64,000 nt of DNA from Escherichia phage vB_EcoM_LMP33. The notes beneath the pieces are model-generated. The model ran no database searches, had not been told where the DNA came from, and saw only the letters and a list, made by a program, of their open reading frames with translations. Below are positions 51,605 to 51,912 of this stretch, piece by piece. The DNA is taken from the sequence record MK482689.1; one strand, given 5' to 3'. Every line of letters starts with the position of its first letter. Positions within the stretch are counted from its first letter, which is position 1. The position numbers and the translations under genes were made by a program.

Positions 51605-51686
51605 CGGGGCGTATCTCAGCGGTCTTCTAAACCGCCGTTAACCGAGTAAGTGGAGTATGCGGGTTCGAGTCCTGCCGCCTCGACCA
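51605..51686 (+). tRNA. tRNA, atypical fold; candidate anticodon UCU (Arg)
   Basis: Clear acceptor CGGGGCG/CGCCTCG, T-arm GCGGG-TTCGAGT-CCTGC and CCA; candidate anticodon arm GCGGT-CTTCTAA-ACCGC, but the D-arm region is too short and there is extra sequence 3' of the anticodon arm. Confidence 0.4.
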
Positions 51687-51829
51687 ATTTAGTTAGCAGA
51701 TTACTTAGACGACCTAAGCGGGTCTTCCTGTAGGGAGGTGGTCTGTATCTCATGTTTTCCAGAACATGTAAATAATCTGAGAAGGGGCTTTACAGTGTTG
51801 AGATAATACGGTGAGCTTCGAATTATAGT

Positions 51830-51912
51830 ATGGGACGATGTTAAGACTCTAAGGCATGAGCAACGGCTTCCAACACCGTTTCAAAGGGGTTCAACTCCTC
51901 CGTCCCATGCCA
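51830..51912 (+). tRNA. tRNA, atypical; candidate anticodon CCA (Trp)
   Basis: Acceptor ATGGGAC/GTCCCAT, T-arm AGGGG-TTCAACT-CCTCC, CCA; candidate anticodon arm AACGGC-TTCCAAC-ACCGTT; D-region longer than canonical. Confidence 0.4.

Follow-up and report, generated by a model that had tools for sequence, protein, structure and literature searches.

Two tRNA-like genes with noncanonical cores in the tRNA array of Escherichia phage vB_EcoM_LMP33: a putative tRNA-Arg(UCU) of a transposed-D-loop class and a putative tRNA-Trp(CCA)

Introduction

The cloverleaf connectivity of tRNA has so far been treated as near-universal outside mitochondria. Among phage tRNA genes, those of T4 include the stable RNAs species 1 and 2 (rnaC and rnaD), which are tRNA-like and unusually structured, and to which, to our knowledge, no anticodon function has been assigned. 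Here we describe two tRNA-like genes in the tRNA array of Escherichia phage vB_EcoM_LMP33, which we analyzed in a window of 64,000 nucleotides (nt) of sequence record MK482689.1 (one strand, numbered from its first letter). An earlier reading of the letters alone (the original prediction) had described them as atypical genes for tRNA-Arg(UCU) (candidate 1, 51605-51686) and tRNA-Trp(CCA) (candidate 2, 51830-51912). It had noted convincing acceptor stems, T arms and encoded CCA ends next to a noncanonical D-arm region, and it had left functional tRNA, regulatory RNA and pseudogene as options. We found that candidate 1 belongs to a large class of phage genes with a rewired core that crosses phage families, and that candidates 1 and 2 are structurally unrelated to each other.

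Canonical tRNA-Arg(UCU), as encoded by E. coli argU, by T4 and by the phages VpaE1 and Sf17, has the same anticodon loop as candidate 1 (CUUCUAA), the same 7-, 5- and 5-bp stems, a UUCGAnY T loop and a D-loop of the form A-R-N-U-G-G-A..A with A20, and it shares A or G at position 73 with the subfamily found in the window. It also shares with candidate 1 the presumed reading of AGA, and the tRNAs of VpaE1 and Sf17 share its genomic slot as well. Unlike in canonical tRNA-Arg, the D-stem 5′ strand and the D-loop of candidate 1 come after the anticodon arm, which emerges from a D-like helix. Metazoan mitochondrial D-armless tRNAs, such as mt-tRNA-Ser(AGY) and nematode tRNA-Ser(UCU), function in translation without a D hairpin and resemble candidate 1 in the short connector between acceptor and anticodon stems (PMC7609411). 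However, these RNAs are flexible and have lost the elbow motifs (G18 G19), whereas candidate 1 has relocated but kept a full D-loop and the equivalents of G10, A14, R15, A21 and Y48, and it is hosted by an ordinary bacterial translation apparatus. A review of noncanonical tRNAs does not mention phages (PMC7609411). Permuted and split tRNA genes (Cyanidioschyzon merolae and Nanoarchaeum; PMC3978253) have an altered order of segments in the gene, as candidate 1 does, but they mature to canonical tRNAs, whereas the rearrangement in candidate 1 is internal, leaves normal acceptor ends and would persist in the mature RNA.

Other systems compare with candidate 2 or with parts of candidate 1. The 8/4 and 9/3 tRNAs, the allo-tRNAs and the phage 8/4 tRNA-Ser and tRNA-His (Mukai et al., PMC5389517) resemble candidate 2 in its possible 8+4 = 12-bp acceptor branch, and the phage 8/4 tRNAs are, like candidate 2, phage-encoded, noncanonical and located within a tRNA cluster. 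From the 8/4 tRNA-Ser and tRNA-His of bacteria and phages (PMC5389517), candidate 2 is set apart by its Trp identity, its 3-bp D stem, a unique 9-nt connector and the lack of a long variable arm. The tRNA-like domain of tmRNA (RF00023) has acceptor and T arms and a degenerate D region in common with candidate 1, but candidate 1 lacks an mRNA-like domain and has a true anticodon arm.

Results

The window comes from a Felixounavirus: the 1 kb around the two genes matches Escherichia phage vB_EcoM_LMP34 at 100% identity and, at 95 to 99%, a large number of Felix O1-like phages (genus Felixounavirus, subfamily Ounavirinae). ARAGORN called 25 tRNA genes in the window, on the + strand in an array spanning 49871-54946, and left 51268-51925 empty of calls. 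The 25 tRNAs represent 19 amino acids, with Trp missing, and the sole tRNA for Arg carries the anticodon ACG, so the array contains no canonical Arg-UCU. Both candidates lie on the + strand within the array and were missed by ARAGORN. Reading the sequence, we verified their positions and strand, as well as the acceptor stems, T arms, encoded CCA ends and anticodons ascribed to them (Table 1). Each has a 7-bp acceptor stem, a UUCRAnY T loop, U33, a purine at 37, a discriminator and CCA. The D-arm region is noncanonical in both, in different ways: candidate 1 has no D hairpin, and candidate 2 combines the 9-nt connector with the 3-bp D stem.

Table 1. Window positions of the two candidate tRNA genes, their parts and adjoining features
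Feature	Position	Strand	Remarks
Sigma-70-like promoter match, TTGACA-17-TATAGT, 11/12 positions	51283..51311	+	Best in the tRNA array; consensus match only
Candidate 1, putative tRNA-Arg(UCU), "transposed D-loop" class, 82 nt including encoded CCA	51605..51686	+	101.7 bits with model R1
Acceptor 5′ strand CGGGGCG	51605..51611	+	Pairs with 51676-51682, including a G3.U70 wobble
UAU connector (U8 and A9 equivalents, and a U opposite U51647)	51612..51614	+	Invariant in alignment A4
CUC, 5′ strand of the 3-bp helix enclosing the anticodon arm; replaces the D-stem 3′ strand	51615..51617	+	Pairs with GAG 51644-51646
Anticodon arm GCGGU-CUUCUAA-ACCGC, anticodon UCU at 51626-51628	51619..51635	+	4/5 pairs compensatory
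Linker CGUUAACC, in the variable-loop position	51636..51643	+	CGTTAA invariant in BLAST-derived homologues
GAG, 3′ strand of the enclosing helix (D-stem 5′ strand equivalent, G10-N11-G12)	51644..51646	+	Covariation
Transposed D-loop UAAGUGGAGUAU, directly abutting the T stem	51647..51658	+	Like canonical tRNA-Arg D-loops
T arm GCGGG-UUCGAGU-CCUGC	51659..51675	+	Helix covariation
Acceptor 3′ strand CGCCUCG, discriminator A73 (51683), CCA (51684-51686)	51676..51686	+	Sequence reading
Spacer between the two genes	51687..51829	+	Ends conserved as flanks; site of HNH endonuclease gene insertions
Candidate 2, putative noncanonical tRNA-Trp(CCA), 83 nt including encoded CCA	51830..51912	+	Ounavirinae specific; covariation
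Acceptor 5′ strand AUGGGAC (A1-U72 ... C7-G66) and G51837, a possible 8th pair with C51901	51830..51837	+	1-72 and 2-71 covary
9-nt connector AUGUUAAG-A (2 nt in canonical tRNA)	51838..51846	+	Conservation
D arm, 3-bp stem CUC/GAG, 8-nt loop UAAGGCAU, GG kept	51847..51860	+	CUC:GAG changes to CAC:GUG and CAU:GUG
Anticodon arm, 5-bp stem AACGG/CCGUU, C.A apposition, loop UUCCAAC, CCA at 51870-51872	51862..51880	+	4/5 pairs compensatory
Variable loop UCAAA and T arm GGGG-UUCAACU-CCUC(C)	51881..51901	+	G-C to U-A compensatory in Moogle and L080
Acceptor 3′ strand GUCCCAU, discriminator G73 (51909), CCA (51910-51912)	51902..51912	+	Sequence reading

Candidate 1 and its rewired core

Candidate 1 reads CGGGGCG-UAU-CUC-A-GCGGU-CUUCUAA-ACCGC-CGUUAACC-GAG-UAAGUGGAGUAU-GCGGG-UUCGAGU-CCUGC-CGCCUCG-A-CCA. 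The acceptor and anticodon stems are separated by 7 nt, and 23 nt follow the anticodon arm. This is the layout of the transposed class, which runs from the acceptor through UAU, CNC, N, the anticodon arm, a linker (3 to 5 nt long in the wider class), GN′G and U-A-R-N-U-G-G-N..A-Y to the T stem. The segment UAAGUGGAGUAU holds the equivalents of U13, A14, A15, N16, U17, G18, G19, A20, .., A21 and U48 and contains a complete tRNA-Arg-type loop (UAANUGGA..AU); the corresponding D-loops are AACUGGACA in the canonical tRNA-Arg of VpaE1 and AGUUGGAUA in E. coli argU.

In terms of canonical numbering, CNC-N would equal residues 23-25 plus 26, the linker residues 44-47, GN′G-U residues 10-13, the following loop residues 14-21 and the last U residue 48. 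Residues 10-21 would then have left their place between 9 and 22 and would stand between 47 and 48, and candidate 1 would keep every conserved tRNA core nucleotide. The new chain junctions (9 to 23, 47 to 10 and 21 to 48) would join residues that are adjacent in the canonical L-shape, which makes a normal L fold plausible.

BLAST searches found the 82-nt element at 81 to 90% identity in unrelated phages: Klebsiella phages of the genus Sugarlandvirus (Demerecviridae), the Asteriusvirus jumbo phages A4 and PBECO4, Mydovirus and other Vequintavirinae (KB57, Mydo and W70), phi92 (Stephanstirmvirinae) and Streptomyces phages (BoomerJR). In these phages it was always located within a tRNA cluster and was unannotated. 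Altogether 262 sequenced phage records contain the element, a pattern scan of IMG/VR added 50 loci, and the rewired topology also occurs in hundreds of viral and metagenomic contigs. Species-representative bacterial and archaeal genomes (185,579) were scanned with the pattern of the strict UCU subfamily alone and gave only 3 matches, all on contigs of metagenome-assembled genomes that hold other tRNA genes (1 to 14 each).

When the homologues of candidate 1 were aligned, the single-stranded segments proved invariant while the stems varied freely. Among the 34 distinct sequences of the strict family, the acceptor stem occurs in 29 versions, the anticodon stem in 15 and the T stem in 14, almost always with perfect pairing. 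In a 32-sequence alignment of the family (alignment A4), 98.9% of the cells pair, compared with 32 to 47% when the partners are slid; 15 of the 20 pairs are changed on both sides and all four helices covary. Both-side changes affect all 7 acceptor pairs across the family, and even within Felixounavirus the anticodon stem alternates between GCGGT/ACCGC and GCTGT/ACAGC. The 3-bp helix that encloses the anticodon arm is 100% paired in alignment A4, with a middle pair of U:A in 24 sequences, G:C in 5 and A:U in 3. In a wider set (n = 88), it takes the forms CCC:GGG (30), CAC:GTG (27), CTC:GAG (26) and CGC:GCG (5), and the members with Ile anticodons described below show the same pattern of covariation, all four Watson-Crick combinations being present in the wider sets.

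A covariance model built from alignment A4 (model R1) gave its members 88 to 104 bits, with 101.7 bits for candidate 1, and no canonical tRNA more than 33 bits. It found exactly one member in the window, and it also found a divergent member with an ACG anticodon elsewhere. A structure-only search, in which U33, GG and a TTCRA T loop were required, was run on 2.2 Mb of fetched loci and returned 88 (strict) or 192 (relaxed) unique matches, candidate 1 among them, and 0 in shuffled copies. The UAU connector, which was not required, was present in 85 of the 88 matches.

If the transposition model is right, the equivalents of residues 15 and 48 should covary like the canonical pair, and such covariation was found. 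Sequences with A15 carry U48 in 68 of 69 cases, and a scan demanding G15 yielded 6 members, 5 of them with C48; one G15 member is a close relative of the window's subfamily (UAGUUGGAGUAC versus UAANUGGAGUAU). In the metagenomic Ile set, for which 15/48 was left free as R/Y, the combinations were A-U in 65, G-C in 29 and mismatched in 7. The position equivalent to A21 is invariant, as is the UGGA motif. The covariation of the helices, together with that of 15/48, makes the transposed-D-loop fold of candidate 1 likely.

Amino acid identity of the class and its relation to canonical tRNAs

The identity set of E. coli ArgRS consists of A20, C35, U36 or G36, and A or G at 73. Candidate 1 carries the Arg identity nucleotides. 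Its own discriminator is A, and all 34 strict members have either A or G there; in the wider transposed class, U or C at 73 also occurs. Among IMG/VR members with the strict scaffold, none had a base other than C35 or other than U36, and the single member without U34 carried CCU. When the pattern was generalized, with the anticodon free and A20 required, 88 of 88 matches had Arg anticodons (UCU in 56, ACG in 18, CCU in 13 and UCG in 1), and CCG has also been seen in the rewired scaffold. Because the A20 requirement is itself an ArgRS determinant, we ran the converse control on metagenomes. Non-A20 members carried only UAU (84), GAU (13) or CAU (4), with U20 and A73 in 101 of 101, and on these sequence features they are an isoleucine identity class. 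Likewise, in the structure-only matches Arg anticodons went with A20 in 119 of 119 cases, and of the 67 matches with Ile anticodons, 66 had U20 and all had A73. No other amino acid identity was accepted for the transposed scaffold in the 2.2 Mb, where 6 apparent exceptions turned out to be misregistered canonical tRNAs. The anticodons of the class so far are thus UCU, CCU, ACG, UCG and CCG for Arg and UAU, GAU and CAU for Ile. The anticodon shifts only along with the matching synthetase identity elements, and the class therefore fits what is predicted of charged, decoding tRNAs. Its restriction to Arg and Ile may reflect a single origin, followed by a UCU-to-UAU anticodon shift and a change at position 20.

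ARAGORN reported two long tRNA-Ile(tat) genes, of 91 nt (L048:1612-1702) and 96 nt (L087:6269-6364), which are probably Ile-type transposed members. A 98-nt tRNA-Arg(tct) in the second of these loci (L087:13332-13429) is a divergent member with a transposed D-loop and scored 55.6 bits with R1.

Of the rewired members, ARAGORN detected a single one among 153 of the Arg type and a single one among 101 of the Ile type. The members sit in tRNA arrays: further tRNAs are present at 138 of the 153 Arg loci, and the 556 kb of Ile loci contain 418 of them. The anticodon of the rewired gene recurred on a canonical tRNA at the same locus in 1 of 153 cases for Arg and 1 of 101 for Ile, and canonical Arg tRNAs with different anticodons are common at the rewired Arg loci. 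At one such locus (L092), a rewired ACG gene stands with canonical UCG, CCU and UCU genes, and at another (L146), a rewired UCU gene stands with canonical CCU, UCG and ACG genes. In VpaE1, Sf17 and Moogle, a canonical tRNA-Arg(UCU) occupies exactly the site of candidate 1 between the same flanks, so that, in the Ounavirinae, candidate 1 and canonical tRNA-Arg(UCU) are allelic. AGA, a rare codon in E. coli, makes up 32% of the Arg codons (13 per 1,000 codons) in 53 long open reading frames (ORFs) of the window.

These data bear on the possibility that the two RNAs are tRNA mimics that do not decode, for example decoys or inhibitors of tRNA-targeting defense nucleases, regulators or primers, in which the anticodon loop and the identity elements would be kept for recognition by a protein that binds tRNA-Arg or tRNA-Trp. 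There is ample documentation both of defenses that cleave tRNA and of phage tRNAs directed against such defenses (PMC10264068, PMC11464382, PMC13056530); in addition, the unusual cores call for a special explanation, and a generic tRNA model scores both candidates poorly. However, nothing would keep a decoy from occurring beside a canonical tRNA that has its anticodon, yet loci with both are very rare, and in the sister phages a canonical tRNA-Arg(UCU) replaces candidate 1 exactly. Further points against mimicry are that all variation in the anticodon stays within the synonymous set for Arg or for Ile, in step with the identity elements, and that the acceptor and T arms, which are read by EF-Tu, and the CCA end are fully canonical. 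The literature that we examined on tRNA-targeting nucleases names none that acts against tRNA-Arg, tRNA-Ile or tRNA-Trp. We therefore regard nondecoding mimics as an unlikely explanation.

Candidate 2, a putative tRNA-Trp of a different architecture

Candidate 2 reads AUGGGAC-GAUGUUAAG-A-CUC-UAAGGCAU-GAG-C-AACGG-C-UUCCAAC-A-CCGUU-UCAAA-GGGG-UUCAACU-CCUC-C-GUCCCAU-G-CCA. There are 26 nt from the acceptor to the anticodon stem, and nucleotide 26 is absent. Relatives were found in Felixounavirus, Mooglevirus (Moogle and Sf17), Suspvirus (EcSzw-2) and, with 76% identity, Pectobacterium phage Arno162, and the connector GAUGUUAAG is invariant from Felixounavirus to Arno162. Two viral scans for this architecture outside the Ounavirinae yielded only contigs of Ounavirinae size and chance or coding matches. 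Neither R1 nor the structure-only search matched candidate 2, which places it outside the transposed class.

Among 11 distinct sequences of candidate 2, 99.1% of the cells pair and 8 pairs are changed on both sides, while slid controls gave no such pairs. The anticodon stem, for instance, changes from AACGG:CCGUU to GUAAG:CUUAC and GUAGG:CCUAC. RNAalifold independently produced the fold, with an 8-bp acceptor stem, a 3-bp D stem, a 4-bp T stem, a 5-nt variable loop and an anticodon arm in which the 5-bp stem is followed by a C.A apposition (C.C in Arno162) and a 7-nt loop. The apposition at 31-39 is non-Watson-Crick in all relatives. The G8-C65 pair never varies, and a 7/5 arrangement with an A49.C65 mismatch is as compatible with the sequences as the 8/4 arrangement. 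Felixounavirus has two main alleles, UUCCAAC and CUCCAAA, in which loop positions 32 and 38 change together. A pseudoknot between connector and D-loop (AUG:CAU) was also considered; all 11 sequences would allow it, but the only changes in its support are to wobble pairs and come from one lineage, and we do not claim it.

E. coli TrpRS recognizes the CCA anticodon, G73, A1-U72 and G5-C68. All 11 relatives of candidate 2 have CCA, G73 and G5-C68, and position 1-72 is A1-U72 in 8, G1.U72 in 2 and G1-C72 in 1. As the original prediction had pointed out, the array offers no other candidate for Trp: ARAGORN called none, and candidate 2 would fill the otherwise missing 20th amino acid. For the Moogle-like phage Sf14, a published analysis lists 26 tRNAs, which serve 19 amino acids and do not include one for Trp (PMC12482277). 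Two Felixounavirus loci (L033:3383-3453 and L047:7866-7936) have, where candidate 2 would lie, a compact 71-nt tRNA-Trp(CCA), called by ARAGORN, whose D region consists of a 3-bp stem (GCU/AGC) and a 5-nt loop. The Trp slot thus holds two unrelated atypical alleles.

With both alignments in hand, the pseudogene option of the original prediction can be weighed; here we take it to mean decaying tRNA genes or remnants of recombination or endonuclease activity in a fast-changing array. The locus is indeed a hotspot of cassette swaps and HNH endonuclease insertions, neither gene was called by ARAGORN, and a few relatives of candidate 2 have single mismatches. However, every helix of both genes shows compensatory changes, down to the double change in candidate 1 inside Felixounavirus, the loop motifs are invariant, and candidate 1, in its 262 phage records, is 83 to 90% identical across unrelated phage families while its stems vary freely. 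Decay is thus a most improbable explanation, and it is almost certain that both genes encode genuine structured RNAs under selection.

Standard tools and existing annotation

An Rfam scan of 5.8 kb matched candidate 1 only with RF00023 (tmRNA), at 22.1 bits and across its tRNA-like ends; it did not report candidate 1 as a tRNA and gave no match for candidate 2. In a narrow permissive scan, candidate 1 reached 31.7 bits on the tRNA model RF00005 (gathering score 29), with the D arm deleted (15 model positions reduced to 4 nt) and 20 nt inserted after the anticodon arm, and candidate 2 reached 16.9 bits on tRNA-Sec, with no match to RF00005 at E<=10. Canonical tRNAs of the array that match the Rfam tRNA model score 43 to 65 bits. 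In the covariance-model check that the original prediction had proposed, the generic tRNA model scores both genes poorly while the family-specific model R1 separates candidate 1 cleanly. Since the poor scores arise because the architecture differs, low covariance scores, which had been named as a refutation, are not a valid one here.

The RF00023 match raises the idea that candidate 1 is a miniature tmRNA-like RNA with a tRNA-like domain. The absence of a D stem at the usual place and the combination of G3.U70 and A73 in the window copy are in keeping with it. However, 22.1 bits is far under the gathering score of 47 and lower than the score on RF00005, and only the ends of the tmRNA model align. 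Moreover, the gene is 82 nt long without a tag reading frame or pseudoknots, its anticodon arm is of the canonical kind, with anticodons for Arg, and G3.U70 is not conserved in the family. ARAGORN found no tmRNA in the window. We rejected the tmRNA reading, whose probability we consider close to nil.

In GenBank, candidates 1 and 2 are unannotated in most records. A few records label candidate 1 as "tRNA-OTHER" or overlay it with hypothetical coding sequences. Coding sequences for hypothetical or HNH proteins overlap it in MK482688.1, MW006474.1, PQ036202.1 and other records; these ORF calls are probably spurious and cover what is an RNA gene. A 45-amino-acid ORF on the minus strand of the window (51616-51753), which overlaps candidate 1, is an ORF call of the same kind.

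Surroundings of the two genes

The sigma-70-like match upstream of both candidates on the same strand (51283-51311) is a possible promoter of a polycistronic precursor. In the scan of the region, the total number of promoter matches was not above the shuffled expectation. A terminator scan found none between candidates 1 and 2. Just downstream of the promoter match, a 91-nt segment (51315-51405) is present in the window and in L033 and absent from VpaE1. HNH or endonuclease VII-like genes (L004:903-1250 and L007:1598-2107 among them) lie between the two candidates in Felix O1, Alf5, SP22, CRP22 and others, and in Sugarland such a gene directly follows the rewired tRNA-Arg. The adjoining HNH endonuclease genes may help the candidate 1 cassette to spread between phages.

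Discussion

Of the three options that the original prediction had left side by side, the comparative evidence favors functional tRNA and disfavors regulatory RNA and pseudogene. Functional tRNA is favored because the helices show compensatory changes, because the ArgRS and TrpRS identity elements are kept, because candidate 1 is subject to allelic replacement and is complementary to the canonical set, and because there is no other Trp tRNA. Much of this comes from the comparison of orthologous loci that had been suggested as a check, which revealed covariation in both genes and a canonical tRNA-Arg(UCU) at the candidate 1 site in sister phages. We consider it probable that both genes encode expressed, aminoacylated, decoding tRNAs with noncanonical cores, which act beside the 25 canonical ones. 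Candidate 1 would read AGA, and probably AGG, as arginine, and the host ArgRS would recognize its A20, C35, U36 and A73. Candidate 2, with its arms in the normal order, would read UGG as tryptophan.

Several observations weigh against this interpretation. It is from sequence that we infer that the RNAs are transcribed, processed by RNase P, charged and used on the ribosome, and also how they would fold in three dimensions. The candidate 1 family was gathered by sequence patterns, and conservation at the pattern positions is in part built in; left free in the patterns were the 5′ TATCNC segment, the helices, the anticodon (in the generalized and Ile scans) and 15/48 (in the Ile scan). The single-sequence fold of candidate 1 is not more stable than that of shuffled sequences (z = +0.37) and, with z = -1.25 for candidate 2, thermodynamic support is uninformative for both. 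RNAalifold recovered the three long helices of candidate 1 and missed the 3-bp enclosing helix, for which covariation is therefore the sole evidence. One locus (L036) has a canonical and a rewired Arg-UCU together. For candidate 2, the covariation comes from few lineages (the 11 distinct sequences), relatives have mismatches (G4.A69 in REP12 and a T-stem U.U in L069 and L075), and the anticodon loop has 9 nt unless the C.A apposition pairs. Finally, the G3.U70 pair of candidate 1 (51607/51680), together with A73, could compromise a pure Arg identity.

G3.U70 is the main determinant for AlaRS, and the last point leads to the possibility that the two RNAs decode with an altered meaning, candidate 1 being partly charged with Ala and candidate 2 reading UGA as well by virtue of its altered D arm and the weakened end (C.A) of its anticodon stem. 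G3.U70 is present in the window and in several members from enterobacterial phages, 7 of the 34 strict-family sequences in all, including the copies in Sugarland, KB57 and phage A4. Since the other 27 lack it, we rejected Ala identity as a feature of the family. For candidate 2, the non-Watson-Crick 31-39 apposition in all relatives recalls the tRNA-Trp(CCA) variants with shortened anticodon stems that read UGA in E. coli assays (PMC13092985). However, in those variants it is the top stem pair, 27-43, that is affected and not 31-39 (PMC13092985), and TGA is an ordinary stop codon in the window, where it ends 10 of the 53 long ORFs. An altered meaning is thus quite improbable.

Decoding of the cognate Arg and Trp codons leaves the unusual cores to be accounted for. 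It is a reasonable guess that they were selected to escape a host nuclease or another factor that reads the D-arm region, a natural hypothesis because phage tRNAs are held to evade tRNA-cleaving defenses. In the full form toward which we incline somewhat, candidate 1 would represent an unrecognized structural class of tRNA in which residues 10-21 are transposed to the variable-loop position. Very diverse phages would use this class, so far for Arg and Ile only, and tRNAscan-type tools and databases would hardly ever show it. It may have been selected for evading a host tRNA-directed nuclease or other D-arm-reading factor while remaining acceptable to ArgRS or IleRS, EF-Tu and the ribosome, with candidate 2 as a second, independent and lineage-specific solution for Trp. 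The searchable literature, which included few subscription journals, contained no description of either structure, and a prior description is possible.

If this hypothesis is true, a widespread class of tRNAs would show that the L-shape can be reached by a different chain topology, and the class would be a natural test case for how the core is read by ArgRS, IleRS, EF-Tu, RNase P, modification enzymes and the ribosome. The divergent set for Arg, Ile and Trp would be an obvious candidate for escape from tRNA-cleaving defenses, an active field of study, and naturally divergent scaffolds that are competent in translation would be of use in the design of orthogonal tRNAs. Of the rewired genes, ARAGORN picks up about 1%, and GenBank almost never annotates them; phage tRNA repertoires would therefore be systematically undercounted. 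Analyses that compare codon usage with tRNA content would inherit this undercount, an example being the "26 tRNAs for 19 amino acids" of Sf14.

Related arrays contain further atypical tRNA-like genes. Sf17 (L065, approximately 415-545) and, at the same coordinates, Moogle (L063) have an extra, unannotated tRNA-like RNA of approximately 128 nt, absent from the window, in the interval from the canonical tRNA-Arg(UCU) to the conserved flank. This RNA has the acceptor GGTCAAG/CTTGACT, G73, CCA and the T arm GTAGG-TTCGACT-CCTAC, with approximately 85 nt between the acceptor 5′ strand and the T arm. In Salmonella phage Si3 (L045:2806-2882), ARAGORN called a tRNA-Asp orthologue with a 4-base anticodon (gtca) and an implied 8-nt anticodon loop, which may be a frameshift-type or a damaged tRNA. 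A Streptomyces-phage-like locus (L041:6424-6703) encodes a tmRNA (tag ANSMNASAFALAA) in an array with Arg-GCG, Arg-UCG, Arg-CCU and a rewired Arg-UCU. In Mydovirus and phi92-type arrays (L009:1063-1137 and 2739-2808, L015, L050, L017 and L010:2136-2211), which also hold the rewired tRNA-Arg, ARAGORN reported "tRNA-???" genes with 2-base anticodons, implying anticodon loops of 6 nt.

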